This document shows positions 4,566-28,816 of a DNA stretch of 43,791 nucleotides, piece after piece. The stretch is from Psammoneis japonica (taxonomy: Eukaryota): positions 359,516-403,306 of the forward strand of contig QPGO01000071.1 of NCBI GenBank assembly GCA_008632985.1, in the 5' to 3' direction. Position 1 is the stretch's first letter. Every line of letters begins with the position of its first letter. Position numbers and translations under genes: made by a program. The notes beneath the pieces were generated by a model that did no database searches, was not told where the DNA came from, and was given only the letters and a program-made list of their open reading frames with translations.

Positions 4566-5645
4566 ATGTCTTGCAATACTTTCATACATCGGTTAGGTTG
4601 TAACGTGATTACACGTGGTACGCTACTAGAGCACATCATTCGAAAGCACCATCTTTTGCCGGCGGTGCTGTCAGGACAACGACTGTTTTATTCTTCGAAA
4701 GCACCCTCAGATGACAATGAAAAAGAGGAAACAAAAGTCAACAAAGAAACATGGTCAACTGCATGGGTCCCCCCTAATCGCCCTTTGTCGGGTGATCTGG
4801 GAGAGTCGTCTCACACGTACGATACGACTGCCGAGGAATCAACAAAAGTGGAGTCGGATGAAGACGAAGAATTAAGGCAGCTCTTAGAGGAGGACGAAGA
4901 GCTACGGCGTCTTTTGGAAGAGGAAGAATCGTTCATGGAAGATGAAAACGAAAGCGAAAGTGAAGAAGAAAATGAGGATGATGATACAGTCGTAGACTGG
5001 TTGCAGACTCGTCGTTCCAAACTAAAGGGACAAATGTTGGGTACCGCGTCACAAGACCAACTCGATGTTATCAAACACACGCTATTGTCGCGAAATGAAA
5101 TCATATCTCTTCTGGAAAGGATGGGCGGACAACATATTGTAGAGATGAATCAGTATCAACAACACATGGGTGCCATGATTTTGACGACTTGCCCTTCTCC
5201 AATGCACATCTCAACCATTGCGGATACTATAGTCGAGAACCTTAAGAAACGAGAATTGGCAGATATGGGGGTTGTGGGTGCCCAGTTTGGATCAGAAGGA
5301 TCGGTATCAAAGCAAGAAACTTGGAGAATTGTAGATTGCTCCAATTTTGTCGTGCATCTCATGACAGAATCAACCAGACAACACCTGCAACTGGAAAAGT
5401 TGTGGACGCAAGAGCAAGGGGATGACTTGCGAAAAATCAGTCTAACGGACGAAGACGCTATGGATGATTATGTGGCTGACAATCCAATTCCCGATGACTA
5501 CTTCAGTTCTCTTGAAAGTGATGCGCAATGGACAACGGAAGCTATAACGAAAAGCTTGCGGAGAAAGAGATGGGACGAACCCACCAAGTCAAGGAACAAG
5601 CAGTCGAAACGGAGTGGTCGGAAAATGCCGAGACGTAATCGTTAA
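4566..5645 (+). CDS. rsfS: Organellar (probably mitochondrial) ribosome silencing factor RsfS/Iojap/MALSU1 family protein
   Basis: C-terminal domain with WRIVDCSNFVVHLMTESTRQHLQLEKLW (RsfS signature W..VD....VVH.......R..Y.LE.LW). Presequence-like N-terminus (..QRLFYSS) followed by an acidic linker. ATG at 4566 lies divergent from the DCAF4-like gene. Confidence 0.85.
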   Translation: MSCNTFIHRLGCNVITRGTLLEHIIRKHHLLPAVLSGQRLFYSSKAPSDDNEKEETKVNKETWSTAWVPPNRPLSGDLGESSHTYDTTAEESTKVESDEDEELRQLLEEDEELRRLLEEEESFMEDENESESEEENEDDDTVVDWLQTRRSKLKGQMLGTASQDQLDVIKHTLLSRNEIISLLERMGGQHIVEMNQYQQHMGAMILTTCPSPMHISTIADTIVENLKKRELADMGVVGAQFGSEGSVSKQETWRIVDCSNFVVHLMTESTRQHLQLEKLWTQEQGDDLRKISLTDEDAMDDYVADNPIPDDYFSSLESDAQWTTEAITKSLRRKRWDEPTKSRNKQSKRSGRKMPRRNR

Positions 5646-5829
5646 AGTTGCTAAGATTCTAATTTAAGGAACAAAACCATAATAAGAAAGGATGTTTCTT
5701 GCATGCGTGCTCTATAGTTAGTGCGTGGATGCCTAGGAAGGAAAAAGGACCCCACGAGTAGCTTCTTAACAGCATTGCTTCCAGATCCGTCTTTGCGCAA
5801 AAATTGAACTTCCAAGGTGCACACAATGC

Positions 5830-7560
5830 AATTGAAGAGGCACGCGTGAAGCAAGCGTGCACGGGCAGCTTTTCGTGCCGAGTCTCCGAGGATTGTTGCA
5901 ATCCTCGTCATCAGTGCGTCACACGCACATCAATGATGCACTGGAAGGAGGGGCTTTGAATCAATGCACGGCACTGGCTGCACATCTGTCGATGACACAC
6001 CCAGGGCACAAAGGGAGAAGATGACTGCACTTGGGCACCCACCTTGCTTGCTTCATAACTTGCACATTGTAGCACCTTGCACATGCAGCAGCAAACATCT
6101 TGGAGCCAACACAAGATGCTTTTGTTGAGCTGTCCTCCTCATCACACAGTCATGATGTGCAGGACCAGCCCTCACAATCACCCACCTTTGACTTGTTCTG
6201 TGGTCTGCAACAAACCTCAGAGTGTGATGGTGGAAAATGAAGTGGCTCACATGACAGCTCACCACACCTTGGCCTTGAGATTGCAGCATCGCAGGTGCCT
6301 TGGGTTTTCTGCGGTTCAGCCTGTTTTAAGCTGTGCTTCTTTGTCCAACAAAGCCACAGGGTGGAGTTGTGATGATGTTGCAACACAACGTGAGAGACAC
6401 CTGTGCCTCACATTGTTTGCCCCGACACTTCCTCACCACACCATCACAGTGCGCAGAGCCATTTGCAACAAAGTGAAAACACCAAGACAGTTTTGCACGC
6501 ATGTGAAATTTGTGGGTTGTCATCTCCAACACAGCCATGACAGCAGGAGAAAACTTCAGGGAGCGGGGGGGGGGGGGGGGCACTGGTGCTGTTTCCCATG
6601 ACTGCTGCACTGTGCAGTGCCATCTTTTCACCAGCTGCGCAACTTGGTTTCCACGCACCCTCCTGCAAAAAAAAGAAGGTGGTGGCTGCTGTCAAGCTTG
6701 TTGGCACCTCCACCCTTGAGAAAGCCCAAAACAGCACTTCCATCTTGCAGCACATGTTGGTTGAAAAGGTTTGCCCCAAGTGCAGCAGAGGGGCAATTTT
6801 GTTGTTGTTGGCCAAGCCACTCACTCTTTTCTCTCTGTCATGGCTCTTGGCCATTTCTGGCTGACCTGGCAAATCCACACTCAACCAACTGCTCTGAAAG
6901 GAGGGATTGCCAAAAAATGCAGAGCAACATGTGGCGGGACAAGCTTCGCAATGGCAGAAATGTGTTTTGAATTTCTCCGGCTGCAGAAGCTGACACGAGT
7001 TGGCACATTTCTAGGCCTCCATTGCAAGTCACAGCTGCTGAGCACAAAAATCACCAGCTTCTCAGTGAAGGCCCACTCCAGCTCCAGATGAACCATGATT
7101 CATCACGCAAGGTGTCAGCTGAGGAGGGTCGCATTTGGCACAATGAACTCCTTCAATTTTGATCATTTCAAAAATCAAAAGATGAGTGTGCACAAAAAAC
7201 AAAACTTTTGTGCACACTCACCCTTTGATTTTGGAAAAAATTGAAATTGAAGGAGTTTGTAGTGCTAAATGCAGGAGTGAGTCAGTGATGGATCATGCCC
7301 GCCCCTTTTTTTTAAACACCTGGAGAGAGCCAGAACAGGCCTGCAGTGGGAAACAAGTTGTTGGCAACGTGGCTCATTGAATTTGTCAAACAAGTGCAGT
7401 GCAACCTGAAGTTGTCAATGTCAAACAAGAAAATCTGATTTCTCAAGACTGGGGGTGTGCCATCTGCCCTCCCTTGTTTCTCAAACATTTGCTGCTGTTT
7501 TTGACCTCTCTGCCAGCTGCAGTTGGTCTGCCAAGCACAGAAACATGATTTTCAGCACAG
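5830..7560. other. TpA/CpG-depleted, TpG/CpA-rich hypermutated domain 1 (degenerate repeat or dead-gene DNA)
   Basis: TA and CG almost absent and TG/CA abundant. Six-frame ORFs are Cys/His/Trp/Gln-rich and essentially Tyr-free. Contains a G16 run (6565-6580). Boundaries approximate. Confidence 0.85.
7171..7232. repeat. Inverted repeat / hairpin, 27-bp arms (25/27 matched), 8-nt spacer
   Basis: 7171-7197 AAAATCAAAAGATGAGTGTGCACAAAA versus the reverse complement of 7206-7232, AAAATCAAAGGGTGAGTGTGCACAAAA. Confidence 0.85.
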
Positions 7561-7937
7561 GGGCATGAGGGAGTATTTTCAATAAACCAAAACCACAGTC
7601 CCTTGTCGAACTTCCCATTTGACTCAGACGCATCGTCAGATCCACCTTGGCGATGATGCATGGACGACAGACATGACGCAAGACCGCCGTGGGAACGGGC
7701 AGGTGGACCGGATGGAGGTGGGGCAGCGCAGCGCGGTTTTTCGTCCCGTGCCTCTCTCCATCCGTATCGGTAATCTGCTTCGCTACCTGCCTCCAGTACA
7801 GCATCTGTCTCTTCATAGCATGGCATCCCACTACCGGCACATCCAAGAGAAGAGCGCAAAGAGAAAGACCTACGACGATATGTGTATGATGTTTATATGA
7901 CAACTCTAACGGAAGAATTGGTTGCGCCTGCAACAAG

Positions 7938-9095
7938 TTACCAGAAGTTCTCCATCCCAATGCTATTGAGAAGCTCCCGTCGCTCGTCCGACAAGACTTT
8001 CCGTCTCATTTTCTGAACCCTTACCCATTTACCAAGCTTTGGGTTTTCATCAAAATGCTTTGGGACATTGCAATGGCCGTTCTGAAGCTTGTACTGCTTC
8101 AGTTGCTCAAACATGCTCTCCCATGATTCCTGGACACGCCAAATGAATCCTACAGCGTCGAGGTGTTCGATTCTGTCGGCGGCGAGCTTATCAGACTTTT
8201 TGAGCGTTCTTTGCTTTTGAACCCCTATCAAAATGACAATCGAAGGAAGCAAATGTGAGTGTATATGAACGAATGAAAAATATCAATATGACCAAAGACA
8301 ACACGTACAGTTTCCTAGCTTGGGTATCTGTTTGTAATCCTGTGGGACAACACAATGGCCATGTTTTTGCTTATACTGAAGCAACCTTTCATACATTACA
8401 TCCCATGTTTCTCGCTTGTAAGGCTGAGAATAGGGTGCAGGTTTTTCTTCGTCTTCACCAGCAGGATCTTCGTCTGCATCTTCAGCTTCGGCAGCAGGAG
8501 GTACTATAGCCACACCATTCCGTTTTGCTTCTTCTCGCTCAGCAGCTTCTCGGTTAAGATCGTTTGCAGTCGCTTGTAGTAATGAAAGCTCGCCCGAAGT
8601 TCTCGGCTGTTGATTAAGAGAGGCCAACGCCATTGCTTCCTCTTGGAGCAGCACCGCAGCACCAGAGGGATGAGGATTCAAGTACTGTGGTATACCCGCA
8701 GAAACAGGATACAACAGAACGGGATGTGGAACAGGAGCTAGTGCAATAGAGTGCAAAGGAATGCCAAGTGTGTTGAGGGGCAATGACGCAGAAGCCATGT
8801 AACGGTTGTTCCGTTCGCGTTGTTGTTGTAGCAGCTGACTTCTCCGCTGTCTCAACTGGTGAAGTGATAAGAGCTGCTGATTCTCTCGACCAGGGGAAGT
8901 AAACGATGCCAACGGGTCTACAAAATGGCTTCGATCCTGCACTCCGGGCGACGTTAATCCGGAGTACTCCGTCAAATTTCGCCTTTGAATCGGGGCAATT
9001 GCATTTCCCGAAGGCTGAACCTTTGGCGAATCTTCACTTTTGCGGTGTGTTGATGACATGTTGCGGGAGTATTCTTCTCCTCGGTGGACTAGCAT
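7938..9095 (-). CDS. Helicase-associated (HA) domain protein with two HA repeats and a Gln-rich low-complexity N-terminus; exons 9095-8309, 8224-7938 (alternative start 9059)
   Basis: WDVMYERLLQYKQKHGHCVVPQDY...PKLGNWVQKQR...RIEHLDAVGFIW and WESMFEQLKQYKLQNGHCNVP...PKLGKWVRVQ...ERRELLNSIG are textbook HA repeats. Intron 8225-8308 (GTACGT...TAG) restores LGNWV. Confidence 0.9.
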
Positions 9096-9699
9096 TGCAA
9101 GTGTACGTTGTTTCTCTGAAGTTTCGTCGTTTCTCGGTCTTTGTCTTTGACCTTTAACTTCGTGACAGCAGCAACAATGAGGCCTCTCAAACAATTCAGT
9201 AGGGCCCTAGAGCCTCTTCTTTAGCGCGTTGTTTGTGGCAACTTCCGTTCTTTTGTGTCGAGATTGTCAGCCGAAAAGGGCTTTCTCATAAATAAAAATG
9301 TGCCACACGAATATCCGCTTTGTCGGTGTTCATTATCAAATTAAACAGATACGTTTAGAAGAGACGTGTCATATTCACGACTACGTACTATTAACGAAGA
9401 AGTTGTACTGAAATCTGCCTGCGAAAATGAGGGAAGATTGTCTTTCAATAGCCTTCCCAATGCAATTACTTAACGAGAAAAGCCTTGACAAATGAACATA
9501 AGGACATTTGATCTTGATGATTTCTGTATGTTTATCAACTCATTCTTGTAACGGCCTCTTCGCAAAAAAAGGCTATTTCCAGTTCACAACGCAGACGCGA
9601 GGCCAATTCTGGCCGCCACACCCTCTCTAGCTAGAGCTCCCTCACTCGACATGATGGCATTTCGTCGCGCCAAGTATTTTGTGATGTGGCTTCGACTGC

Positions 9700-11290
9700 A
9701 GCCTACTCGCGACAACATGCACTCTGGCTAGTGGGGGTTTGTGGGTGTGACGCCCATGAGAGTGCCCACATTTTCACGATGTTTTGTTTGTGAGCAGGGC
9801 GCGTGAGAAGCAAAGGGGGAACTTGCTGTTTGTCACTTGTTGTTGGAGATTTCTTGTTCTTTTCTCTTGCAGACTGCAAGTGCTTCAGCAAGAAGGTGCA
9901 ACATTTGACACATTTTCAGTTGTGCTTGGACATTTTTCAAAATGTTGGGTTTGACGACAGATCCAGAGGCAGCAGGTCAACAGAGGGAGAGAGGAGCTGC
10001 CACTCTCCTTGAGAGAAGCTGGATTTTTCATCGCACTGCACAAAGCACGTCAAAGCAGAAGAGCTCTTGTGGATCTGCTCCATGTCAGCATGGATGATGA
10101 TGGCAATGCAAAGTGTGCAATCTTCTCATTTGAGGAGGGTTTTCAAAAATTGCCAGTGACAAGTGGGGGCACGGCTGAGCGGCTTGATTTGACGCCAGAG
10201 CTTGCTCGCAACAAAGATTTGCACATGATCCTCTGTGCTTTTTTGTTGCCTTCAACACTGGTGCAGACAGGGAACTGCTGCTGTGGACCAAGAGAAAGGC
10301 CCAAGTTGTGCCCAGTTGCAGCAGGGGCAGGAGGGGGGAGCCACAGGGTCAACTTTTCCACAAACCTGGAGGGTTGCTTTCTTGCCTCCAAGGCTTCCAA
10401 GAGAGATGCTGGCTGTTGCAGCCAATGAAGAGCCACTGCTTTTGGCTTTTTTCAAAGCACATCTTTGAGATTGGTCAGATGGAAAGTTCACTGGCTTTGA
10501 TTTCCGGAGCACAGGAAGTGGCTGTGGCACACGCAGGTTCTTTTTTTGTTGGCCCTGAAAAAGCAACAAGAAATGGGGCAACAAAACTGTCAAGCTCGCA
10601 GCACTTGTTTGGAGTGTCCATGGTGGCATCAAGGTGCAAGAGGGTTGGACATCAACAATGATGGCAGCACAGGTTGGGCTTTTTCCACCTTTGGCATTTG
10701 ACAAAATGTGCTGGACACAAAAAAGCATGGGAGGCGGTGCTTTGACGACAGCGACCTTCCTTTTTTTTGAAGCATCAGCTTGTGTGGGAAATGTCTGCAT
10801 GCCCTGCAATTGCATTGGCAAGCATTGGTTTTTAGAAAGAGTTGCATGGCTTGCATCTGCAGAAATGCTCTTGCCAGCTGCCACAACAAAAGCTTCTGCA
10901 GTTGAGCGGCGGTGCATGATGCGCAGCAAGTTGTTGCGCCACTGCTTGGGGCATTTTTGGCAGGTCACATTGTGCCAGCCACGGATGACAACATTTCATT
11001 TTGATGCCAACTGTGTGTCTTCCATGACAAGCATGTTTCTCCACCAGTTGTTGCTGGCGTGCCAGAGTTTTTTTCGTGTTGTTGTGCCAGAACGACTGCA
11101 GATGACCTTTTCAGCTCCAACCACGCAAGGAGCCAGAGCCGACTCACTGGTTTGTGACACAGCACATCTCTCTGTTCTCATAATTCTCTCAAGTGTTTGG
11201 TTTTTTCTTAAAAGTGCAGCACTGGCTGTTGACCTTGATGTGCCAGCACAGCACTTCCTGTCATCCGAAGCGAGGAAGCGAGCAAGTCCT
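9700..11290. other. TpA/CpG-depleted hypermutated domain 2
   Basis: TA nearly absent. The 240-aa ORF 10634-11356 contains no Tyr. Boundaries approximate. Confidence 0.85.
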
Positions 11291-11322
11291 TCGCCAGTGA
11301 AGTGGCGCATCATTAGAAACAT
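10143..11322 (-). pseudogene. Possible decayed protein-coding gene of unknown family
   Basis: ORFs 10996-11322 and 10252-10968 share a frame and are separated by one TGA. The less-mutated 5' end lies about 200 bp divergent from the gene at 11527, a spacing like other head-to-head pairs here. Weak, because stop codons are generally depleted in these domains. Confidence 0.35.
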
Positions 11323-11526
11323 TAGAAGCTGTTCATTTCAATCTTGGGTATCTTGATTGAGTCGTGCCGAAGTTCTCGTGCGTTCTGCGTTCTGCTTTAT
11401 ATTATATTTCGGCACAACATGTTGCCGCTCGGTAGTCGGAACAGTTAACATTACAGCAGTTGTGTGTTGTTGCGTTAGTTCTTGTTTCGCTGTTGAAGAC
11501 AGGATTGAGGAAAGAGTCTCAAAGAC

Positions 11527-12246
11527 ATGGTGGAGAACAAGGCATCCCTTTTAGGTGCACCAAAGAACGACGGAGGTAGCTTGGGCGAAACGCAGGGCAC
11601 AATCATGGCAGAAGCGACTGCAGACGCGCCTGCAAGCAATCACGGTGACCCCTTGACGCTTGATGGGGTGGAGACTACAGCCAGCGACGATGATAATGCT
11701 GAGGCTCACACAGATGACCGCTTAATGGTGGGTGCTGGCGTAGCTGGCGGTGTTTGCGGTCTCTTGCTGGGCGGTCCCTTCCTTGCGACACTTGCAGGAT
11801 TCGGCGCAGCATGGGCTACTTCGAAGCAAGGTGCCGCTGGTGACGTCGCACGAGCCATGGGGGAGGTTGCTCTGACGGCTCGTAGCAAGGCTCAAGAACT
11901 GGACGCTAAGCATAAGTTCACTGAAACGACAAAGGAAGCTGCATCACAAGCCGTGGGTCGGTTGCAAGAGTATGAACGCCAACACGATGTTGTGGCAAAG
12001 ACGAAGGAATTCTTCGTTTTCTCGTGGACCAAAGTTTCCGATTTCAATCGCGAGCATCGCGTCGTGCAGCGGGCGTTTGAAACGGTGGGTCAAGCTATTA
12101 CGTTTGTGGTGAACAAAATCATTGATGCAGCAACATCAAGTAGTGAGGAAAACAACGAAGATTCACCGGAGCCGGAGTACACGTTTGTTCCCAGTGCACC
12201 CCCTGAATCGGAAGACAAGACCAAGTGCGATGCAAAGCCGTTCTAA
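11527..12246 (+). CDS. Hypothetical protein with Gly-rich hydrophobic hairpin (glycine-zipper-like) and amphipathic helical C-terminus
   Basis: 239-aa single-exon ORF with normal composition. GAGVAGGVCGLLLGGPFLATLAGFGAAWA hydrophobic segment, followed by GDVARAMGEVA. Confidence 0.8.
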   Translation: MVENKASLLGAPKNDGGSLGETQGTIMAEATADAPASNHGDPLTLDGVETTASDDDNAEAHTDDRLMVGAGVAGGVCGLLLGGPFLATLAGFGAAWATSKQGAAGDVARAMGEVALTARSKAQELDAKHKFTETTKEAASQAVGRLQEYERQHDVVAKTKEFFVFSWTKVSDFNREHRVVQRAFETVGQAITFVVNKIIDAATSSSEENNEDSPEPEYTFVPSAPPESEDKTKCDAKPF

Positions 12247-12281
12247 AACGAAGTAGTATCTGCTAGTATACCTAAGATATC

Positions 12282-14957
12282 CTAGAGTTTTCGAATTACG
12301 CTCAACCCATCTCTCATGGGGAGAACCATCACTTCCACACGGTCGTCCTTGACAATTGCAGAATTGAAGCGATGCATCTTCATTGCGAGCTTCCGTGCTC
12401 GTCGTCCCTTTTTCTTTTGCTGTTCACTCTCTCCATCAACCGCCGGCTCCTTACCCCCATTGTTGGCCTGCAAGACGAGTCCCTTCCACAACACATTATC
12501 TACAACAATCAAGCCTCCCTTTTTCAGGACAAAATCATTTGACACGCAAGCCTCTACGTAATCCAACAATCTCGTCTTGTCAGCATCGACAAACACCATA
12601 TCAAATGGTTCCGGTGGATTCTCCATTTCAATGCGTTCTGTTACCATTTCCTCAATTGTAGCCAAAGCATCAGTCACTCGAAGGACCTCACAGCCTACGA
12701 GATCTTGGTAAGTTAGAAAGATAGAATCTTCTTCGACTTGAGGGACGCCTAGACTCGGAGAACAAAGACAAGATGGAACGTGAGTTTGTAGAAAACGCAC
12801 TGCTACAGCATACACATGTAGCTAGTACACATACCTTGTCCGTCCTTACTTCGTAAGCTGCAAGCGGCTTTTGAAGCGTCTTGTCCCGTCGCGGTTCCCA
12901 AATCCGACATGACTTGTAAGTGAGCAACAGCCAGATTGATGGCACGCCCATCTCGTTCCATGGTTTGTACAAACGGACCAGCTTGCCGTCCACCAGCCAC
13001 AGCAGAACTACTAGCGGAAGCTACAGAAGCAGCGCCTTCGACCAAGCATGCAGTGGCATATCCTGTAAACGTCCCGATTTCTAAAATTCGACCATGTGTC
13101 GTCATGCTAGCTAGCAGCTTTAAAAATTGCCCTTGTGCTGCACCCGAAACCATGTGAGAGCCCGTGGGTAAATAGGCTCGCGTATTGTGTTCCATCTCCT
13201 CATAAAACGATGGCGTCGGTGTCGAATGCCCTGAACTGTAGTCTTCCAGTGTATGGTATTCCACCAACTTGTCTTCGGCAGATGCATCTTGTGGGTTTTG
13301 TTTTTGTTCGAGAACGCCTCGCTTGGACGACATGAAATTGTTCCTTCCCATGATGCGCTGCTTACAAGCATCAGAGCAAGTCCCATGATATGCGGTGCGA
13401 CAAGTTTCACATTGGATCATGCGCAAGTGACAGCTTGGGTTTTGACAGTTCGAAACCAAAGATGTTTTTGCGCCGCATGTGTGGCACTCACCCAATTCAT
13501 CCTTGGTGATTTGTCGAGACAAGCGTCCATCAAAGACAAAGTTGGTACCCTTGAACAAACTTTCGTCATTTTGCTTTTCTTGAGAAATCGTCCGGTCGTA
13601 TGCAATGATTCCTCCAGCGAGCCTGTTCACATTTGTGAAATTCATTTCTTGCTTGAGGTACGCACCAACCTTGACACAACGGATCCCACCCGTACAGTAG
13701 GTATAAATGGGAGCATCTTTGGGTGCATCCTTTAATCTCTCCTCAAGCACTTGCCACGAATCCCGAAAGTTCTCTGTATCCAATGGCTCTGCACCGACAA
13801 AGGTTCCCACCGAACTCTCGTACAAGTTGCGACAATCCAACAATATCGATTCGTCGTCTTGGTTCTTGAGAGATTCGTGCCATTCCAGGGGTGGCATGTC
13901 GTATCCTGCATCCGACCAATCCAATGCCTTGGGTAGTCCATCCGCAACAATTTGATTTCGAACACGCACGTGCAAATTGGTAAAGGGCGCTTCTTCTTGT
14001 ACAGAAAGCGGTTCGGGATCTACATTGATTCCGTTTTCCATCTTGCTTCCCAATTCTGGTATTTCTTCTTGACAATAGCGTATAAATTCCGGCAAAACAT
14101 TGGTGGGAACACTCATTTGAGCGTTAATGCCTTCAGTGGGTGACACATAGATGCGTCCCAGGGCGGAAAAGGGTTTGAATTTGCCCTTGAGAGAGTGTGC
14201 AAAATCGTGTGGTTTGGGAATCTCGCCAAAGGCATAAAAGGAAATCATGGTGATAGTGGATGAGTCGGATGGATTTGCCATGTTTTGAATGTAATCAGGA
14301 ACTTGTTCTGGTGGTGGGGCATTGGGGTCTTTGGATATGAACAGGTTTAGAGTTGGTCGTTTCAATTCTTGGTCATGTTGTTGATCATCAAAATAGTTGA
14401 GAGCCTTGAGAAAGGTATCCGTAACATCCTCATCGGTTTCAACTGTCCATGTTTCGTTCATATTACTCCCCGATGGTAAGGACGCCGACATGCAATAGGT
14501 TCCTTTTCGTAAACACCGAAAAAATGCGTGTAATTCTTGTTTCAGATCGGCAATTGTCTGTGTCTTGACCTGGCGATCGCTTAGAATGGGAACAAATAGC
14601 CGCCCCCGTCGTTCTCGTCCATTCAGCTTCAACTCCTTGCGCAACTCGGGACATACTGACACTCTCACGGCCACCAATTCTTGTTGTTGCTGTTGCACAA
14701 CCTGTTTCAGTTCCAAGTGACGCTGTACTACTGCAAGTGTCGATTTTTCCCGTGCCTGCCTTTTTGCTCGTGCGTTCTGTATTTCTTCTTGTACCAAATC
14801 TTGATTGGATTTTAAAAACGACGAAAACAGTGTGATCGTCTTCGAAAGGTCGTGATGAAGACAAGATTCGACTCGAGCGCGAAACAAAGCCTGAAACAAA
14901 CATTGTTCTTCGAAAAAGTACAGCTCCAACAAGTAATCGTATCCAGAATAGCGTCAT
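12282..14957 (-). CDS. trhO: Fusion protein: putative plastid-targeting leader + PB1-like region + TrhO/YceA (UPF0176) rhodanese-type tRNA U34 hydroxylase + C-terminal class I O-methyltransferase (Methyltransf_3, CCoAOMT/TrmR-like); intron 12749-12834; apparent +1 indel near 14850
   Basis: TrhO motifs: SFYAF, GRIYVSPTEGINAQ, LLDCRNLYESSVGTF, YCTGGIRC, LAGGIIAY, FKGTNFVFDGR and the Cys-rich CHTC..NCQNPSC..QCETC..CSDAC tail. O-MT motifs: QGQFLKLL, ILEIGTFTGYA, FDMVFVDADK, GGLIVVDNVLWKG, LPMRDGL. The leader MTLFWIRLLVGAVL...VSG-FVSRSSR is in another frame (ORF starting 14957). Confidence 0.88.
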
Positions 14958-15234
14958 GACGACGACGACGAGCTTTCTCTATCAGCCTCTTTTATATCAG
15001 TAACGTTTTAATCAGGCGAGCTTAGGGAAGCTTATGAGTAACGTGAATTCTTTTGTGGTTTCTGTTGTGTGTCCAAGCCGAAAGCTTTCACTGATAAAGA
15101 AAAGAATCCGAATTTTCGTTTTTAACGGCGTTGGAGGGAGTCTCGCGCAAAAAAAGATCGTGATTCCCTGTTGTGGTGAGAGACCGAGAAAATTTCTCCA
15201 GAACTGCTGACCAAGGGAATCTGGATGATTACTT

Positions 15235-15540
15235 CTAACTAACTAACTAACTAACTATCTATCTACCACTGCTCTCTACTACCCTAGCTAGAGTAGAGAG
15301 AGGTCACAGTAGAGTAGAGCTAGCCACTCTCTCTAGCTAGAGCTAGCTCTACTGGCCACTCTCTCTGCTCTAGAGAGAGCAGAGAGTGGGGGCTTCTTGC
15401 CCTGCCTGTCCGCCCGGCCAGTCGGAACCGCAGAAGAGCTGTGCCGGCATGGCACGGCAGGCCTCTCTAGAGAGTAGAGCCAGTTGGTCACCAAATCTTT
15501 TACTACCCAACATGTGTTCAAGATGCTGTTCCTCTAGTTT
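15235..15540. repeat. (CTAA)5/(CTAT)2 microsatellite followed by a CTAG/AGAG/CTCT-rich low-complexity patch with an 11-bp perfect hairpin (15361-15386)
   Basis: Read directly: ctaactaactaactaactaactatctatcta; repeated CTAGAG, GTAGAG and CTCTAG; stem CTCTCTGCTCT-agag-AGAGCAGAGAG. Confidence 0.8.
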
Positions 15541-15646
15541 TCAATGTTCCAATGAGCTCGTTTCGAGAATGAACCATCAATGATCTTTTCCAGCCAATGC
15601 ATCTTCCTCCTTGCATCCACAGCATCCCTGAAGAAACAAGACAAGT

Positions 15647-16330
15647 CTAACCACGGTTGCGCCTGCGCTTCCAGATGTCAGCTGCAGCATGAGAAAGCTC
15701 AAACGATTCCACAAACAAAACAACGCTGTCAAAACGATGGCGTCCACCAAAAAACTTCCTCGCTCGGAAATTGCGTTTCGAACTCAAACAAGACATCGCG
15801 CTTGCTTGCACAGTGCGACAACACATGTGCACTGCCAGTGGCGTTTCCGGAATTGCTGCAAATCATGAGATCATGGGCATTGCAAGACACCACATCACCA
15901 ACCAATTCATGGCAATCGCGTTCATGCTGTTGCGGTGCTTCCCTGTGAGACCGCCAGAACAGGTCAACAACTGGGGGGGCTGTGGCTTTTCCTTCCAAGT
16001 CATGATGATCAAAGAGTCTTGCTGACCACCGCTGTTGCCATGCTTTTCAGATGCAATGGCTTCAACCGCCTTGACCACAAGAAATTGACGGCATTCATTT
16101 GCTGCCAGTTCGGCGAAAACCTCGAAAGAACCACCATGCTCTTGCATTGCTGGCGAATGCCCAGCAAGTGAGGGGCGCTCTTCTTGCCAAATGGCTGCTG
16201 GAGAACAAGATGAGTGTGCCAGCAAAGTGTGAGCAAAAGCTGAGTCACCGGCACAGCTGCTGGCACGCAGCAGCTTGTCAGATTGTTTCCAAGCTGACAA
16301 ACAAGGCTTCAGCCACTCCATGAACAATGG
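15647..16330 (-). pseudogene. Degenerate paralog of the GRDP-like (DUF1399-type) domain of the gene at 23555-25182
   Basis: Fragments ECRQFLVVKAVEAIASEKHG, WKEKPQP, VDLFWRSHREAPQQHERDCHELVGD, CASKRDVLFEFETQF and FGGRH align with EYRQFLLVKAVETIASCKYG, WKEKCQP, VDLFWHAHMQAPQQYAIDCHCLIGD, YASKRDAVFAFEKQF and FGGRRH. Several frameshifts. Aligned Tyr residues are Cys or His. Confidence 0.88.
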
Positions 16331-16400
16331 CAGATGTGCTGCCCGTTGTTGTGTGCTGCTGGCGCGCACTTTGTTGAAGCACCCAGCCACAATGCACTGA

Positions 16401-16511
16401 CGATGATGACCCAATGGGCTGGGTGATGCTGGGGTGTGAGGACAGGCTTCTTGAGCGATGATGACCCAATGGGCTGGGTGATGCTGGGGTGTGAGGACAG
16501 GCTTCTTGAGC
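16401..16511. repeat. Perfect 55-bp tandem duplication (2 copies)
   Basis: CGATGATGACCCAATGGGCTGGGTGATGCTGGGGTGTGAGGACAGGCTTCTTGAG at 16401-16455 and 16456-16510. Confidence 0.92.
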
Positions 16512-19321
16512 ACTCAGAGAGTTGCGTCTCCAAGATGAAAATGGCGTTTCACTGACTTTGCTTTCCATTTTTGAAGTTCACAATGTTGTTTTTATTTTCA
16601 ACAACATTTTGTGGAGTTTTGGCGAGTTTTAAGTTTTTGCACCAGCCCTCATTTGTTCCGTGCACAAGTCAAAAAATGATCGCGACTCCGTTTTGTGGTG
16701 TGGAAAACAACGATGAGCTCAACAACAACCGCTTTTAGCAGGTGCCGCAGAGAGGAAGGAATCCAATGTTTGAATGCTGCAGTTTGTTTTCACAGCAGAA
16801 TTGGGACCCACCAGGCAGGACATTGATGGACCAGCTGCACTCTCATGGTTCGGCCACTTGAGTTGTTCACCTCCTCATGGGAAGGGGCCGGAGAGGTGTC
16901 TTGCAGTCACGTGAAAGGTGCATTTCAACCAAGTCTAATGTGCCATTCAGAGCCTCTCAGAAGACATTGTTTTTTGGAATTTTGAAAAAATGGGAGCTTG
17001 TTGTTGGTTGGCGAAAGGAGAAGCAAATGGAGAGTGATTTTTCAAACCGGCTGGATGGGTCTGATTTTCATGGACCAAGTCCAATGCATGAAGATGGACA
17101 AGGGATTGATGGTTTTGAGCTTGTGTTGATGTCATGACGCAGAGAACACTGATCATGAAGTTGAGACCAAATTTGAGAAAAAGACCTTGTGACATGCCAC
17201 ACGACTGCATGAAAGCAAAAACATTTCCAAAATGGTGATTTTGTTGCCATTCACTCATGTTGTGCAGCAGAGCAAAAGAGATGTTTTGGAGGGGAGTCAA
17301 TCTCGTTTTCAAGACAGAAGGCATCAAAGGTCACTTCCTGAAAAAGTGTTCTTTTTGACAACAATGCATGTGGGGAGTTGTGAGAATTGCTCGTGAATGC
17401 AGTGAAGTGTGATGATGTGATGCCAAGTTCCCAATCGTAATTTTGAAAGGCTGTGCGGCGGCATTGTGATGACCCACTCACAGATGAACAAAAATTGCCT
17501 TTGTTTTGACATGGCTCATTGCAACTTGTCATTGTGACAACCAAAAGAGCATTTCATTCATTCTTTTCCTTTGACAAAAATGTTGCAAATCACAGGAAGA
17601 GTTTTCTGATTGGCCAAAACCATTTTTAACCAGAATGCTCAATGACAAAAAAATGCTCAAGCCCCATGTGATGATCACTTGAGCCCCTAAAACTGACACC
17701 ACCACCCACCTGTGCATGTGTTGTGATTGTGATCAACACAGTCCCTGCCACTGTGTTCACACTGGCAAAAGACAAAACAGCGTCAGGCAACAGGATGCCT
17801 GCAGCCAATGGCACAAACATTGAAACCCTCATCACTTTGTCAAAAGCACAGCTCAAAAATGTGGCACATGGAAAAAGAGCTTTGTGCTTGCACGCCATGA
17901 GCATGCTTTGCAGTTTGATCCCCCACCAGTTTGTTCTGTCATGCTTTTCAGTGCCTCACTGTGATTCGTGACATCTGTGTGTGGTTTTAAATTGCACAGA
18001 AGGTTCCACTGCTCTGCATTGCCTGAAACTCCTTTATGATGTGGCCCACTTCCATGCGCACACTCCATGCTTGTGTTCCTTCAGCACCTTGTTCAAATCA
18101 TCAGCTTCTCCAATGCATGCCAAACTTTGATGACAAGCACAAGGCAGAACACAGCAACAACAAAACTCTTTTGCAGGGGTGCAGCTGGTGCATCTGGGGA
18201 GCAGGTGATGTGCTTTTCACAGTGCTCCTGTTCACTTGTTTCAAGATCATGCACATGACCCAGTTTGAGTCATCTCCAGTGATTTTGCTCACACCAGTTT
18301 GCAGCATGGCCCCTGCTTTCACTTGCAAAGCCAGCCCCGCCAGCGTGGAAATGAGCTCTCTTGTTGTTTTTCTTCATGAGCAAAAACAGCTCAGCAGCAG
18401 CTTTGCTTTGAGCAAGAGGTCTGCTTCTGGGAACTGCTGTCTGGCTTTGTTGGGTTGGTTGTGACTGCAGCTTTTCAAAGAGCAAGCTGGTGTGTCTGGG
18501 TTGCCACCTGGTGCTGCCCCCCAAGCTGCAGCTGCTGTCCACACAGCACCACAGCACAAACTGGGTGAAGGAAAGTCCTTGAGAAACTGGTCATTTCATG
18601 TCAAAATTGCACCTGGACTTTGCTTCTCTCAACTGCTTGGATGTCAAAATTGAGCCCTTTGCAAAACAAACAACCAGAGCTTGTTCCAGTGAGTGGACCA
18701 AGCCAGGGTTTCTCTTCTGACCCAGCAAGGCTCACCTCTTTGCTTTTCATTTCACATTTGGCTTTCAGCACAAGAATCTTTGTGGCTTGACTTCACCTCT
18801 TTTGACACTGTGTGACTTGCGTGGCTCTCAAACTTGACCTTCCTTCCACAAAACTTGCAGTTCATGCCAACCATGGAGCTGTCTGCGAATGCATTTCTTG
18901 CCCCCCCCTGACTTCAAGCTGCTCAGGTTGCACCAAATTGAAGGAATGTTCCAGACCTCCAGGAGGCACAATGCTGCAGCTGGCACTCGCCTGTTTTGGG
19001 CCCTTCTTTCTGAGTTTGTCAACAGCCAACCAGAGTGCCAGCAACACTCAACATTTGCCACACCACAGCAACATGCCTGTCACCTTGCTCTGCTGCCCCC
19101 CTCCTTGCCCACGTCATTCCATCACCTTTTTCCATCAATCGTGTGCCCACCCACCACCTTTCCTCTTTCTGTGGCCGCCGAAGTCTGCGCGCAACTTGTC
19201 AATGCTTCAATCACGAGCTCCACTGTTTGTAAATCTATCACTTTCTTTTTGCGCGCACCATGCCGCTCCTGCCTCCTGCGCTGCCAGCCTGCCAGCTCCA
19301 CATTCTGTTTTCGACCCAACC

Positions 19322-20901
19322 ATGACAAACACCGCCGCTGCAACGACCCCGCCGCCGCCATCCACCACACCGGCTTCTCCCGACGGTCCACCATTGGAAA
19401 TTGGTGATGTCTGTATGGTCATATGGAGAGACGGTCAAGAAGAATTGCTCGCCAGCATTGTCGAACGCCGATCCTTACGAAAAAACAAAAAGGAACTCTC
19501 CGACGAAACAGCGCAAGAGGTGGAATACTATGTTCACTATGTGCATCACGATCGACGTCTCGATGATTGGATTACTCTTGATAAGTTTCGATTGGAAACG
19601 CTTCGCCGAAAATCAGAACAGCCTGCTCCACCGACCAAGTCGTCGGGTCCTGGCAAACGTGGCACGAGACGAAGCAACAGCAGCGATAGCATCGGATCGA
19701 TATCACGTAAGCAAGCCAAACTCAGTCCGGAATCAGAAGATGGCGAGACGAATGCGCTTTCTATTGACACGTCGGCGGACTTTTTCTATCACGGCGGCAA
19801 TTGGCACGGCAGCAGCATGACCAATGATCCGACTCTGCAACAATTGGAAAAGGAGCACGAGGAAATCACCCGAGTCAAGAATATTCCTCGCATCGTTATG
19901 GGTTCGTACGAAGTGGAAGCGTGGTACTTTTCACCCTATCCCGCCGAATTTGCCACGGGCAAACGCTTGTACGTTTGTGACTATTGTTTGAAGTACATGC
20001 GTCACTCCAAAACGTACAAGCACCACATTGCGACGTGCCCCTGCCGTTGTCCACCCGGTAAAGAAATTTACCGCGAAGACACCACGTCGGTGTATGAAGT
20101 CAATGGCAAGGATCACCCTGTCTATTGTCAAAACTTGTGTCTGCTGGCCAAACTATTTTTGGATCACAAGACACTCTATTACGATGTGGATCCGTTCTAT
20201 TTTTACATTGTGACTCAAACCAACGAGTTGGGTGCTCATATTGTGGGATACTTTTCCAAAGAGAAAGTGAGTCGTTGTATGGAGGTGATTTGTTGTTATC
20301 GACATGTCTCTAGTGAATACTTATACTCATCTTATGCCTTTCCGTGTCGTTCTCAATTCTGCTCAGGTCTCTGCTGAGGACTACAATTTGGCATGCATCT
20401 TGACCTTTCCCCAGTACCAGAAGCTTGGCTATGGCAAATTCATCATCAGTCTGTCGTATGAATTGTCCAAGCGCCAAAACAAGGCGGGAAGTCCCGAAAA
20501 ACCGCTGAGTGATTTGGGCAAAATTTCCTATCGCAGCTACTGGACCCACGTCTTGTTGCATTTGCTGCACAAGGAAAATCTCGAAACGATTTCCGTCAAG
20601 GAAATATCTCAGAAAACAGCCATTAAACCAGAAGACATTATTAGCACGCTGCAGTCTCTAAACATGATCCAGTGCTGGAAGGGACAGCATGTGATTTATG
20701 TCAAGCAAGATATTTTGCAAGACTACATGAAGCAAAAGTGAGTAACAACACGAGGTGTCTCTTACGCAATACCAATCATCGAAACTTGACTCACGCCATT
20801 CCGTTTTGTTTTCTAATCATTGCAGCAAACGTATTCGCTTGTGTAATCCAAAATATCTCAAGTGGGAGCCGAATGGCGGCAAAATCAAGAGTGATTCTTG
20901 A
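19322..20901 (+). CDS. MYST-family histone acetyltransferase (Tip60/Esa1/MOF-like) with Tudor-knot chromo-barrel; exons 19322-20266, 20367-20737, 20826-20901
   Basis: [16 protein letters not shown] (Tudor-knot); [18 protein letters not shown]2HC zinc finger, [58 protein letters not shown]. Two GTGAGT...CAG introns keep the phase. Confidence 0.95.
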
Positions 20902-21134
20902 GGGTGGGAAACTACGGATGTACGTACGAGGAAAGCGCATGTTAGGGGCATTTTAGGCAAAGATGGCCGCAGAGTTAGCCACTTTACGAGTATGATATTA
21001 TGTAACGCGGCCCTACATGTACTTAAAGTGAAAGCGAAAACTATGTACTGTAGTGATCTGCTAGTGTTAACAGCGCATGCCTACGGTATTTCGTAAGAAT
21101 TTGTTAGAGACGGCTTTTAGTGTAGTATTCAAAT

Positions 21135-22554
21135 CTAGAGTGGCCGCTCGGGGCATTCCAGAAGCCCCCATTTTTCTCGATGTTTTCCAGTGCAATCGAT
21201 ACCACCGATTCGAATCGGAAACAACCCAAAGCCACCAATTCCTCTACTTATGCACTTGGCCTTGGACATTAACAGCAAGTCGACAAAGGAGGGATAATAC
21301 TCGGACACATTATGGCTGGGATCGTAGTAGTCGACATGAAGGGTGTCGTTGCTTCGGTTGGAAGCAACAATTGTCAAATCTTTATTTCTATGCTCTTGTT
21401 GTTGTTGGATCATGTATTGGACAGCATCGTTGGTGTCAGACACAACGTAGATTGGCAGTCCTGGTGCGAGGCTAGCAGCGCATTTCACAGCGTTTGTCAC
21501 AACCGACACTATGAATTCTTTCGCCTTGCCTTCAAACACCACCCCGCCTCTCAAGTCAACTAAATTGTTCCCGTATCCTTTACCGTAAACGCCGAGTTGA
21601 ACATCCTCGGGTACGCCGGTTGGTGCCTTGGCACGTACATGGGCAGCTACAAAGTTTCCTGGCGTAATATTCATTCTAGACATTTCCTTCGACATTTCAT
21701 TTGCAACCGCAGGGGAAGGTTCAAAGAAGAGTCGAAATATGTGCTGAAACAAATCGTAGTTGGAGGGCACAGTAACATTGGGCCTCTGAACAACGTTTCG
21801 GTTTGGAACAATTTCTGACAGTGCTACTCCATTATATGTGTGAAAGTGGTCATTCCACCGTTTTATTATAAAGCCTCCTCTTGCCAGAACGCTCTGAAAA
21901 ACAGCAAACAAAAAGAAAGAGAGTCCCGTTGTTTCAGTTGGAGGTATGAAAAAATTGTAGAGCTTCGCTCACGGCACTTACCAAAACCCGTTGATTATTC
22001 CATGAAGGGTGAGTCGCGACACATTCCAGGTAATCAGAGACCCCTTCTTGGTAGCAGAAACCATTGAAAAAGGTGTCTGGATCCTTTATTTCCTGTAGAG
22101 TCACATTTGTATTTGACACTCTCCAATCAACCCCCCCTACTGGTGGTAATAGAAATTCTTCCAAGTGCGCTGGCTTTTCCCAATAAATCAACAAGACACG
22201 GCGGGTGGCGTTGGCCAGCAAAAGGTAAAAGGGCAGGGGCTTGAGCCGATCAGAAACGCCACCACATTTTTCATTCGCCAAGCACCGAACCACGAGGTAT
22301 TTTGTTTCATTTGTAGGAAATCGACGCTGTTCTGCATGCCAATCTATGTAATCCTCCATCCAAACAGGGACAATAGATTTGGAATGTTTCAGTAGAAGTG
22401 CATTCTGATTTTCGATCAACGAAATTTCTTCGGTTTGGCTAATGAATTGTCGATTCATGTAAAAAGAGCCGAAGAGCAGCGACGTTATTCCTTGAAGTAG
22501 AACTACAACAATCACGAGGAAGGGGAACTTGGAAGAACATAAGAACTGCCTCAT
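21135..22554 (-). CDS. Type II membrane fucosyltransferase-like glycosyltransferase (O-FucT/GT23/NodZ-like GT-B fold); exons 22554-21982, 21893-21135
   Basis: N-terminal TM helix (FLVIVVVLLQGITSLLF); CGGVSDRL; VAAHVR; IYVVSD; FVDLLLMSKAKC..G.GGFG. Phase-0 intron 21894-21981 (GTAAGT...CAG). Confidence 0.78.
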
Positions 22555-23554
22555 GAATCTCACTTTCGTTCTGAATTAGTCTGTAGGCTGTAGAGGTGTG
22601 GCTCGAAAAAACACGTGATTTACGTTGGAGTCAGTGTCGCAATCTGAAAGCTTAGGCTCTCAACTCTTCATAAACATCTATCGCTTAATCCTGTGGACGG
22701 TTCGACCAGAAAAGGACGAACAAGCAATGTTACCGTACGGCATTCGGTTCGACGGGTGCGCCATTGTGATTTTCGCACGCGAGGAATCCAAATTTTCAAA
22801 TCCAACGGCATGCGTCCGTTGAGACGTGCATCCGGGTGCTTTTACTGGAATAATCCGGTGTTTGTTGATCACGTTTTCTTTTGCACAACGCATTAGGCTA
22901 CCGTACATACACATTACATTGCATGTTGCATTGGTTGTGTCTTGTATTCTTTCCTTCTTCATAAAGCAGGCATCTGAGAGGGCGGCCAGAAAACAATGAT
23001 CCGACGAGGCAGGGAGCTGCGCCCTCTCTAGTAGTCGCGCTCGATTCACGAAGTTCTCCTCAACAACCGCCCGAAGCGTGTTTACAAACTAGCGCCTGTA
23101 CCTAAGGCCACCTACGCATCGGTTTTTTGTCATGGTCAACAAGGTTCAGCAAAAAAATTCCGCAAAAGTACCGGACATGGCATGATGTGGCAATGGAACT
23201 TTCTCTTAGCTAGTCCCACCGTCCAATATTTTCAATAACGAGAAGTTCGTGTTTTGTAACATTTTTTCACTAGGAACGACGAGGTCGATAGGTAATAAAT
23301 AGTTCGTAAGTGAGATTCCTTAAATCCCTTGAAACCATCATTGCCTGCCGCTAAAAAAGGAATCGCGATCTTTTTTCGAACGGCGGAAGAAAATCTCTGT
23401 TCCTGTCATTTTTCCCGCGCAATGCTGCTCTTTGCTCTTGCTACACCGCATTGTCCATTCTGCTGCTCGTGAACTACAAACAGCAAGTGCAATCTTTGCC
23501 TCTACACTTTCCGTTTGCATTGAACACGGTTCAAGGAGAAGTCGACTGCCGAGA

Positions 23555-25182
23555 ATGACGAAGCCGCGTTCGAAAAAGGCGAGAAAGAGCTCCAGGGATC
23601 AAGACGTTTCTGGACGTAGTGCGGCCATGGTGGTCCAACCACAAGCACTTACAAATCATCAGAGCAGCTATGCGCTAGTTCAGGATCAGAATCGCATGGA
23701 ATACTTGCTATACCAGATGGAACAACAACAGTTGCACCTTTTTGTCCTACAGCAACAGCAAAAGGACTCCGCATTCATGTACTCGCTGTCGAGTCGTCAC
23801 CACGCTGAATTTCTGCGAGCGCTGTCTCTTCAGCAGCAATACGGAGGAGGAGGAGACTATTTGTCAGCATTAGCTCGACACCAACGTGATGAATATGATA
23901 GTTTCATAACTCAGCAGCGTCACTTTCGTCAGCACCTACATGTGTCAGGATTTGCTCAACAGCAGCAGTTTGCTCAACGTATTGGTATCGGTACGTTGGG
24001 TTATGGTGGCCAAGCGTCGCAACAGCCGCAGGTAGCTACTACGACTGCTACGACTCTACCAACCACTGGCAATGCCAGTATGGATCCCTTAGAGATTCTG
24101 GGTGAAGACATTCATCGTCATATTCTCAGTTTTCTCATGTGTCTCAGGGAAGGCCGTGCTTCGCCCGCAGTTTCGGCAGTTGACTTGTACATCCGTGCTA
24201 ACCAAATAGCCTACAAGGCCACGCACCCCAATCTACCACACTGGAAAGTCCGAGAAGGTCTTGAGAGGATTTTCAAGGTCTCTCGTCAACGCAAAAGACC
24301 AAGTGGGATAAGCTTGCAGACCAAGACCAGAAACGCTACGCCAAGGAGAAAGCTTCCTTTACGACTTCACGTCAGCTTGCCGAGATTTGTCGAGGTCTTT
24401 CGCTCGTTTCCAAACCCTGGCGTCTCGTCACGGGAGATTATATGAATTCAAATGCTCCTTCAGATATTCTTTCTCCGAGTGACCTGTTCGTTCTCAAACA
24501 CAGGGTTCGTTTGATTCAACTCTCGTCCATCTCGACGAACTTTATCAAGCTCGTCAAGGAGAAGTGGGGTGAAGAGACCTTCGAAGATGATGACCTTGAA
24601 GATGTTGGATTCCCGACTTTGGAAGGCCGGCCGTTGCTGGATCTCGTCATTCAAGAATTCGGTGGAACCTACAAGGGCTTTGCCAAATTGGTGGCCTGGG
24701 AGTATCGTCAGTTTCTCTTGGTCAAGGCGGTCGAAACCATTGCGTCTTGCAAGTACGGCAAGAATCGCCAACAGCAAGGCTCGTCGACCGTCTTGGCATG
24801 GAAGGAAAAGTGTCAACCCACGCAGTTGGTGGACTTGTTCTGGCATGCTCATATGCAAGCCCCCCAGCAGTATGCAATCGATTGTCATTGCTTGATTGGT
24901 GACATGGTTTCTTCTTCGAATGCTGGTGATTTTGCGATTGACAGCATCATCGATCATGACGCTGGATACGTCAGTAGCAACAAGTACAAGGAATCGGACT
25001 ATGCAAGCAAGCGTGATGCTGTGTTTGCATTTGAAAAGCAATTTTCGGTCCTGAACGTGTTTGGGGGCCGTCGCCACTTTGGCCTCATAGACGCAAGTGT
25101 TTTGTGTGATGAGGAATTCAATGTCCGTCATATTGCAGCTGAAATTTTGTCGAACATGCAGGAATGCAACGACTGTGGATAG
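23555..25182 (+). CDS. Gln-rich N-terminus + F-box-like motif interrupted by an HMG box + GRDP-like (DUF1399-type) C-terminal domain; apparent -1 indel at about 24277
   Basis: F-box-like DPLEILGEDIHRHILSFL ... LSLVSKPWR. Restoring one G at 24277-24278 gives the HMG box SAVDLYIRANQIAYKATHPNL...IFKGLSSTQKTKWDKLADQDQKRYAKEK, in frame with ORF 24442-25182. GRDP-like EYRQFL..K and P..LVDLFWHAHM..P..Y..DC. Confidence 0.75.
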
Positions 25183-28770: not shown

Positions 28771-28816
28771 ACAACAAGAAGATCAGCGTAGAAGCAAAAG
28801 CGTCGTAAAACATAAA

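Follow-up and report, generated by a model that had tools for sequence, protein, structure and literature searches.

Hypermutation restricted to the TpA dinucleotide has been described in the rhizarian Bigelowiella natans, where 230 of the 231 mutations recorded in two silent viral inserts of mutation-accumulation lines are TpA to TpG or CpA changes (Mettrop et al., 2026 bioRxiv preprint, 10.64898/2026.01.13.699255). According to the same preprint, these two integrated viral regions mutate ~1000x faster than the remaining genome, and they are active in only some of the lines. TpA sites in the inserts mutate at about 6e-7 per site per generation, and the AT>GC and GC>AT rates are 6.85e-7 and 3.9e-9, respectively (10.64898/2026.01.13.699255). 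CpG is mentioned 0 times in the main text of the preprint. In the literature that was searched, TpA-only hypermutation was found solely in this source, and the available portions of two further papers (PMC4504042 and PMC2806351) contain nothing relevant.

In basidiomycetes, repeats undergo an RIP-like CpG hypermutation, which is a methylation-driven decay (Horns et al. 2012, PMC3318451). In dinoflagellates, 5-hydroxymethyluracil (5hmU) is enriched on silenced repeats together with 5-methylcytosine (5mC), and older work cited in these reports describes a preference of 5hmU for the T in TA and TC in Crypthecodinium; in Breviolum no motif was found (PMC11572971, PMC11071213).

The locus considered here lies in a single 44-kb stretch of DNA (the window), in which domains were delimited by a two-state HMM segmentation, run separately on the TA and CG positions, together with a 500-bp profile. 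Five TpA-low domains of 1.5-5 kb are present, each with a CpG-low core:

First domain: TpA-low 5768-7764, CpG-low core 5991-7606, margins of 223 and 158 bp (HMM).
Second domain: TpA-low 9730-11180, CpG-low core 9803-10906, margins of 73 and 274 bp (HMM).
Third domain: TpA-low 15536-19413, CpG-low core 16747-19111, with 12 TA in 3878 bp; it contains 15661-16200 (HMM, 500-bp profile).
Third domain, left margin or collar: 15536-16746, with 4 TA and 46 CG (CG o/e 0.62); it houses 15661-16200 (TA-low minus CG-low HMM segments).
Third domain, core: 16747-19111, with 6 TA and 21 CG (CG o/e 0.16; HMM on CG, counts).
Third domain, right margin: 19112-19413, with 2 TA and 21 CG (CG o/e 1.02).
Fourth domain: TpA-low 31216-36237, CpG-low 31360-35913, margins of 144 and 324 bp; a leaky stretch at 34300-34960 holds 7 TA and 14 CG.
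Fifth domain: TpA-low 38892-43791, running past the end of the window; CpG-low from 38811 to the end.

The right margin of the third domain spans the upstream region and the first codons of a gene for a MYST acetyltransferase, whose start codon is likely the ATG at 19322; the Pfam domains MOZ_SAS, zf-MYST and Tudor-knot match on 18806-20377. The left edge of the fifth domain adjoins the stop codon of an intact gene copy (copy B, see below) and has no margin (offset -81 bp). The genes of the window are intron-poor, with long exons and introns of 86-100 bp, and one of them encodes a helicase-associated (HA) domain protein.

Inside the domains only 51 TA are left in 17,248 bp, and the observed/expected ratios are 0.05 for TA, 1.83 for CA and 1.78 for TG, compared with 0.57, 1.17 and 1.14 outside. 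The base composition is nearly equal inside and outside the domains, because the TpA and CpG processes offset each other, and no TG/CA skew was found at the scale of the domains. A Pfam search of 150 domain ORFs returned noise only, with no transposable element (TE) or viral domain in any of the five domains, and the z ORF at 31741-32562 had 0 hits among 1.84 billion representatives. Two pseudogenes of host families lie inside the domains.

The first-pass annotation had singled out 15661-16200 as a segment with no TpA and about 26 CpG, and a recount gives precisely 0 TA and 26 CG (CG o/e 0.74), accompanied by 59 CA and 52 TG, both above expectation. The TA-free run around it extends over 944 bp (15649-16592) and contains 37 CG. 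Outside the depleted domains there are 1022 TA and 1508 CG per 26,543 bp; at this density 20.8 TA are expected per 540 bp (Poisson P(0) = 9e-10 for the segment), and the minimum among 1193 overlapping non-domain windows of 540 bp is 9. If the TA-poor intact paralog of the pseudogene described below is taken as the baseline (12 TA in 534 bp), the probability of 0 TA is 5e-6. The CpG count of the segment is statistically normal, with 26 observed against 30.7 expected (P(<=26) = 0.23) and 25% of the non-domain windows at or below 26, and there is no measurable CpG decay. Two other domain edges had been described in the same terms. The edge at 5830-5930 is indeed TA-free and CG-retaining (0 TA, 10 CG, o/e 1.29), whereas the one at 35900-36230 is nearly TA-free (1 TA, 10 CG) but retains CG only moderately (o/e 0.40).

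The relation between the two losses is a nested one. At the nine edges available in the single 44-kb window, the TA-low segment overshoots the CG-low segment by 223, 158, 73, 274, 1211, 302, 144, 324 and -81 bp, that is, the TpA-free zone is wider than the CpG-poor core at eight of nine edges, by 73-1211 bp, and 15661-16200 lies in the longest of these margins. When coincident edges are simulated, the offset has a mean of 10 bp and an SD of 81 bp, with a probability of 0.05 for at least 144 bp; offsets of at least 144 bp are seen at seven of the nine edges (P = 2.6e-8). All margins pooled hold 7 TpA and 124 CpG in 2709 bp (CG o/e 0.65). A plot of TpA against CpG, which the first-pass annotation had proposed and which was run within the 44-kb window only, agrees with this arrangement: of the 290 sub-windows (300 bp each), 82 are poor in both TA and CG and 20 combine low TA with mid or high CG, whereas the reverse combination, normal TA with low CG, occurs in 0.

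What the segment has lost can be read against a related gene in the same window:

15668-16147, minus strand: pseudogene remnant (tblastx against the intact paralog; tblastn of six homologs, E down to 8e-23; alignment, frames and counts).
24265-25182, plus strand: intact paralog of the pseudogene, with 12 TA and 27 CG in 24649-25182.

The remnant corresponds to the C-terminal ~160 codons of an HMG-box / 'DLFWHAH...NDCG' family and contains 0 TA and 23 CG. Its reading frame shifts at least once, near 15965-15971, and is interrupted by an in-frame stop; 4 of the 24 invariant residues other than Tyr are replaced. Public data contain six homologs of the family (35-55% identity), and an HMG box (PF00505) is present in two of these. 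The label 'GRDP-like' given to the family earlier draws on PF07173, which matches two of the six homologs (best E = 0.074) but neither the pseudogene ORFs nor the intact paralog, so that this putative name is weakly supported. A homolog search with the pseudogene ORF found none, and relatives in metagenomes comprise 19 distant loci (24-75% identity), none of them comparable in composition; the longest TA-free run among these measures 677 bp and lies in a contig of 67% GC.

Over 339 aligned coding nucleotides, the intact paralog has 6 TpA and the pseudogene 0, whereas the CpG counts are 16 and 17, respectively. The six TpA of the paralog are matched in the pseudogene by CA three times, TG twice and TT once, so five of the six changes are transitions, and the identity of the two sequences rises from 68% to 84% in purine/pyrimidine coding. 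The Tyr losses that had been noticed are borne out against the paralog: EYRQ>ECRQ (TAT>TGC), KYG>KHG (TAC>CAT), QQY>QQH (TAT>CAT) and YASKRD>CASKRD (TAT>TGT). At three of these four positions the Tyr is shared by 5-7 of 7 members of the family, and a fifth Tyr of the pseudogene has become Phe via a transversion. The intact paralog itself is TA-poor, but not equally TA-free.

A second set of natural duplicates gives the direction of the changes. A tandemly duplicated gene is present in three copies, A at 28.7-31.2 kb, B at 36.6-38.8 kb and C, truncated, from 39.6 kb inside the fifth domain:

29920-31215, plus strand: copy A, intact (3' part of the duplicated gene and downstream DNA), used as the ancestral proxy (self-blastn, translations).
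37868-38834, plus strand: copy B, intact, used as the outgroup for polarising changes in C.
39623-40930, plus strand: copy C, hypermutated duplicate of 29920-31215, with 34 TA>TG/CA and 62 CG>TG/CA changes.

Copies A and B are 85.7% identical over 1.4 kb and both are untouched. At the 17 sites where A and B share a TA, copy C has TG at 10 and CA at 6, and keeps 1; at the 36 sites with a shared CG, it has TG at 15 and CA at 13, keeps 4 and shows other states at 4. Over 29920-31215, 34 of 38 ancestral TA have turned into TG or CA, three are transversions or other changes, and one is kept. Per site, T>C reaches 13/30 at TpA versus 6/81 at TpC, 5/92 at TpG and 3/59 at TpT, and C>T reaches 23/62 at CpG versus 0.03-0.07 in other contexts, which, together with a CG>TG to CG>CA balance of 31:31, is the pattern expected of 5mC deamination. 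In purine/pyrimidine coding, the identity of A and C increases from 82% to 93%. As judged from the aligned copies, this is a real mutation process, TpA>TpG/CpA and CpG>TpG/CpA, polarised by the paralogs. Copy C reveals no difference in speed between TA and CG (kept 1/17 vs 4/36, p = 1.0), both being near saturation.

The two losses also differ in their preferences. Among the TA that survive inside the domains, 29 of 51 are in YTAR and 1 of 51 in RTAY, compared with 208 and 274 of 1022 outside (YTAR/RTAY comparison p = 7e-10). The CG surviving in the cores show the opposite bias, with 52 of 118 in RCGY and 14 of 118 in YCGR versus 343 and 382 of 1507 outside (RCGY/YCGR comparison p = 3e-7). The polarised data, in which TA is converted at 8 of 11 YTAR sites and at 26 of 27 sites in other contexts (p = 0.065), are weakly suggestive of a flank preference, and in mixed contexts 11 of 15 outcomes follow an R-T-A / T-A-Y rule. 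No strand coordination was found between neighbouring TA and CG events, which have the same outcome in 18 of 35 cases against 17.5 expected; the TG:CA balance in copy C is 24:10 for TA and 31:31 for CG (Fisher p = 0.056). Nesting, opposite flank preferences, the lack of strand coordination and the different TG:CA balances support the view that TpA loss and CpG decay can be separated. The claim that the former does not arise as a by-product of the latter is supported by the eight nested edges, by the CpG of the pseudogene (17 vs 16) and by the flanks, and it agrees with the B. natans experiment. The accompanying preference for a dedicated adenine-targeting activity is not established: since TA>TG and TA>CA are reverse complements, A or T as the target base would fit the sequence equally well.

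Independently built contigs from the same sample (X1) cover the first three domains, each contig showing 2-9 differences, and in 15598-16063 they bring back no more than 1 TA; this agreement argues against an assembly artefact. Among the differences listed between the window and X1, a few are of the kinds that the two processes would produce, namely TA|TG at 7013, CA|TA at 15712, CA|TG as a pair at 15700-1, and CG|TG at several sites; the TA|TG and CA|TA cases may be a hint of activity. The summed depth of X1 is ~57 over most of 5000-24999 and about 55 over 15672-16338, including the pseudogene; it climbs to 122-597 over 16339-19673, and the stretch 7001-7667 reaches 1515. X1 contig depth is not copy number and can serve only as a hint of repeats; as such it hints that part of the first domain is repeated, that the core of the third domain is probably a repeated element and that the left margin of the third domain is a single-copy flank. 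The second domain is poor in both dinucleotides yet has single-copy depth, hence the equation of core and repeat is not general. A further set of contigs (X2) is spliced and transcript-like and leaves 15672-19006, 6334-7667 and 9669-11002 without cover, a blank that is not evidence of silence.

We consider it fairly probable that two processes with nested footprints, a domain-wide TpA mutator and a core-limited CpG decay, have shaped the locus. The 540 bp would then belong to the single-copy margin of a silent domain that spans 3.9 kb and has been hypermutated. The first process would be a TpA-specific mutator that turns TpA into TpG or CpA, saturating across the whole domain, with sharp edges and the slowest action at YTAR. 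The second would be ordinary decay of CpG to TpG or CpA, presumably by 5mC deamination, which is strong only in the core and weaker toward the edges. The TpA-free, CpG-retaining margins would arise because the TpA process extends further out than the CpG process, by 0.1-1.2 kb. The CpG decay would reflect methylation confined to the core, and the TpA process would follow a chromatin domain rather than methylation. The TpA process could be an activity of the type that causes TpA-only hypermutation in B. natans, with A deamination or T oxidation as the candidate chemistries.

A different account keeps both losses but orders them in time: there would have been one silencing event followed by a much faster action of the TpA mutator, and 15661-16200 would be the youngest part of its domain. 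Such an order, which the first-pass annotation had also favoured when stating that TpA loss apparently precedes CpG decay, appears unlikely, although several observations fit it. TpA loss has reached saturation in each of the five domains, with CG o/e values between 0.07 and 0.39 per domain; none of the 290 sub-windows has lost CpG but not TpA; and across the third domain the CG o/e declines smoothly, from 0.76 down to 0.06, as expected from outward spreading. Moreover, AT>GC in the B. natans inserts is ~175x GC>AT (6.85e-7 vs 3.9e-9; 10.64898/2026.01.13.699255). The pertinent evidence comes from a margin for which age can be controlled:

31216-31981: TpA-free zone downstream of gene copy A, keeping 15 CpG (A-C alignment).

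Copy A with its downstream DNA (29920-31981) and its counterpart in C have one recent origin, given that the masked divergence, from which hypermutation-type sites are excluded, is 5-10% there versus 11-19% beyond 31982. In 31216-31981 both copies are TA-free, and TG/CA sites are concordant at 156 positions and discordant at 5, therefore most of the TpA loss is older than the duplication; the five discordant TG|CA sites permit up to about 10 TpA losses after it. From 17 inferred ancestral CpG, A has lost about 2 and C has lost 14 (12 of them clean TG/CA; Fisher p = 4e-4, computed with 13 losses in C). The gene-derived part of C has, since the duplication, gone from a normal state to saturated loss of both dinucleotides. 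The margin is no younger than C, and, with ~2/17 against 14/17 CpG lost at equal age, the CG-retaining, TpA-free state is therefore long-lived and position-dependent rather than just an early stage; the claim of temporal precedence is not supported by this comparison, the dating of which rests on the single margin 31216-31981, outside the segment 15661-16200. A time lag alone would have left this margin no less decayed than C. In addition, the TpA edges are sharp, and the zone of partial loss expected under steady outward growth is absent. The frameshift, the stop and the replaced invariant residues weakly suggest that the pseudogene is not young, and it shows no net CpG loss. The better-supported reading of these alignments is that margin and core would differ mainly in space, with a wider and sharper footprint of the TpA process than of the CpG decay. 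Higher speed and a wider footprint of the TpA process are compatible, and both may hold; a time lag is plausible a priori, since the TpA rate of B. natans is far above that of C>T, and it may add to the spatial effect.

It is very unlikely that the TpA losses are a by-product of 5mC repair, in which T:G mismatches in the core would provoke long-patch, error-prone resynthesis by a polymerase-eta-like enzyme (WA>WG) that mutates A:T pairs a patch away. TpA and CpG losses always occur in the same domains, and seven of the eight margins, at 73-324 bp, have plausible excision-tract lengths, but 15661-16200 stands 500-1200 bp from the CG-low core. The spectrum of polymerase eta has hotspots at TA and AA and a sizeable share of transversions. 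In copy C, T>C at TpT (equivalent to A>G at ApA) is at the background level of 3/59, compared with 13/30 at TpA, and 34 of 38 changes of ancestral TA are transitions to TG or CA; polymerase eta and non-canonical mismatch repair were rejected on these two counts. Furthermore, TpA hypermutation proceeds in B. natans with virtually no C>T (10.64898/2026.01.13.699255).

That the pattern did not arise by mutation in situ but reflects a TpA-free foreign composition, a selective disadvantage of TA, or errors of assembly or base calling at modified bases is hardly credible and, judging by the alignments, already largely refuted for the pseudogene and copy C, as paralogs and protein outgroups polarise TA>TG/CA within host-gene-derived sequence, non-domain intergenic DNA retains TA (for example, o/e 0.92 at 15001-15500) and the X1 contigs match the window across the first three domains, even though most of the domain sequence has no homologs or Pfam domains.

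If the two-process reading with nested footprints holds, it constrains the mechanism of TpA loss, for which local CpG mutation is unnecessary and local methylation probably so, whose footprint is broader and more sharply bounded than the one left by CpG decay, and which has a flank preference of its own. More tentatively, and with somewhat less conviction than doubt, one may imagine that a TpA-reading DNA-editing defence also exists in the diatom lineage and is widespread in SAR algae; it would be guided by a chromatin domain and not by DNA methylation, extend past the methylated repeat core, by one to several nucleosomes, into neighbouring promoters and genes, and read R-T-A on each strand, with YTAR refractory. 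If true, the R-T-A reading would point to a sequence-specific enzyme, for which T oxidation is as possible as A deamination. The erasure of TpA hits Tyr codons and TATA-like motifs beside active genes, including the upstream region of the MYST acetyltransferase gene, and the process may influence how genes arise and are lost, and how promoters are composed, in such genomes.

Among the known systems, ADAR hyperediting resembles the present pattern in changing A to G next to a 5' U/T neighbour. ADAR prefers a 3' G and acts on dsRNA. Here the 3' G preference is absent, TA followed by a pyrimidine is most readily lost and YTAR survives, on which grounds A-to-I editing by ADAR was rejected; contiguous genomic domains, including single-copy flanks, are affected instead. 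Fungal RIP is likewise a transition hypermutation with dinucleotide specificity, by which non-functional or duplicated DNA is inactivated. It converts C to T mainly at CpA, in both duplicates, hence it enriches TpA. In our case TpA is erased and CpA and TpG are enriched (o/e 1.83 and 1.78), CA is kept at 49 of 52 sites in copy C, and the duplicates A and B are intact, hence RIP was rejected as well. Methylation-driven CpG decay is matched by the equal numbers of CG>TG and CG>CA and by the confinement to silent, repeat-like cores, but it leaves the TpA loss unexplained and has a narrower footprint. For the 5hmU system, no mutational footprint is reported in the available portions of the papers concerned (PMC11572971, PMC11071213); as a precedent, it would keep T-targeting open as an alternative to A deamination.

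The closest counterpart is B. natans, with which the locus shares the nearly pure TpA>TpG/CpA change in discrete regions, independent of C>T, and also the long-term footprint described in the preprint, namely TpA depletion with a gain of CpA and TpG in clusters of a few kb, mostly in unannotated sequence. As in that alga, A>G/T>C is nearly exclusive, the changes are restricted to TpA, and CpA and TpG are gained in discrete regions. The two cases differ in several respects. The depletion is saturated here, whereas 3.3% of TpA remains in the NCLDV insert according to the preprint; CpG decay and nested margins accompany it, whereas the main text of the preprint is silent on CpG; and host-gene pseudogenes are affected, with neither viral nor TE domains detected among the 150 domain ORFs. 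In addition, the window is diatom-like: its MYST gene lacks any near-identical hit, and the named best hits are almost all diatoms (41-53% identity), whereas B. natans is a rhizarian. TpA-only hypermutation itself is thus already known from B. natans, and what the window adds is its nested relation to CpG decay, its flank preference and a new lineage: the same signature, brought to completion in a distant algal lineage, with internal duplicates as natural controls.

The process that removes TpA appears to extend into the regulatory DNA of a gene that is probably active, the MYST acetyltransferase gene. The stretch that spans this gene's upstream DNA and opening codons contains only 2 TA and is almost TpA-free, yet it is CpG-rich (o/e 1.02).

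19112-19413: region 5' of the MYST acetyltransferase gene plus the gene's initial codons (start codon probably the ATG at 19322)

Contigs of X2, one of three coded sequencing runs of one sample and listed as 'DNA?', skip 12748-12833, 20267-20366 and 20738-20825 (86, 100 and 88 bp), introns that belong to the rhodanese-like and MYST genes. All three stretches have GT..AG ends, and X2 therefore looks transcript-derived.

Low TA content with normal CpG is also found at 24251-25000, the region of the intact paralog of the decayed gene copy in the left margin of domain D3. Its TA o/e of about 0.28 is the lowest among non-domain 500-bp windows, 4001-4500 excepted, and may reflect codon usage or else mild exposure to the TpA process. 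Within D4, a TpA-low domain (31216-36237), both dinucleotides are intermediate at 34300-34960 (7 TA and 14 CG), and D4 may consist of a pair of domains, almost fused at this leaky stretch.

In the TpA-free margin of D3, the window differs from the contig of another of these runs, X1, at 9 sites and 3 gaps over 467 bp (15598-16063, ~1.9%), compared with 0.05-0.18% in the flanking genes. At least 4 of the 9 differences are transversions, which means that hypermutation at TpA or CpG is not by itself enough to account for this divergence, and a deep allele or a paralog could be its source. The same margin also carries two perfect tandem copies of a 56-bp unit (16401-16456 and 16456-16511), each starting with a CpG.

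The tandemly duplicated gene has two intact copies, A and B, and a third, C, that is truncated and hypermutated.

Tandem gene family, spans
28742-33621
36560-38859
39616-43776

In copy C (39623-40930), TA>TG changes exceed TA>CA changes (24:10), while CG>TG and CG>CA are balanced (31:31). Neighbouring CpG events have the same outcome in 29 of 44 cases, above expectation (p = 0.02), a hint of strand-wise patches. Divergence between A and C rises abruptly at ~31982, and this step suggests two events of duplication or gene conversion. A Pfam search with the gene returned no match; its 'HIRRGD' motif is similar to fucosyltransferase motifs.
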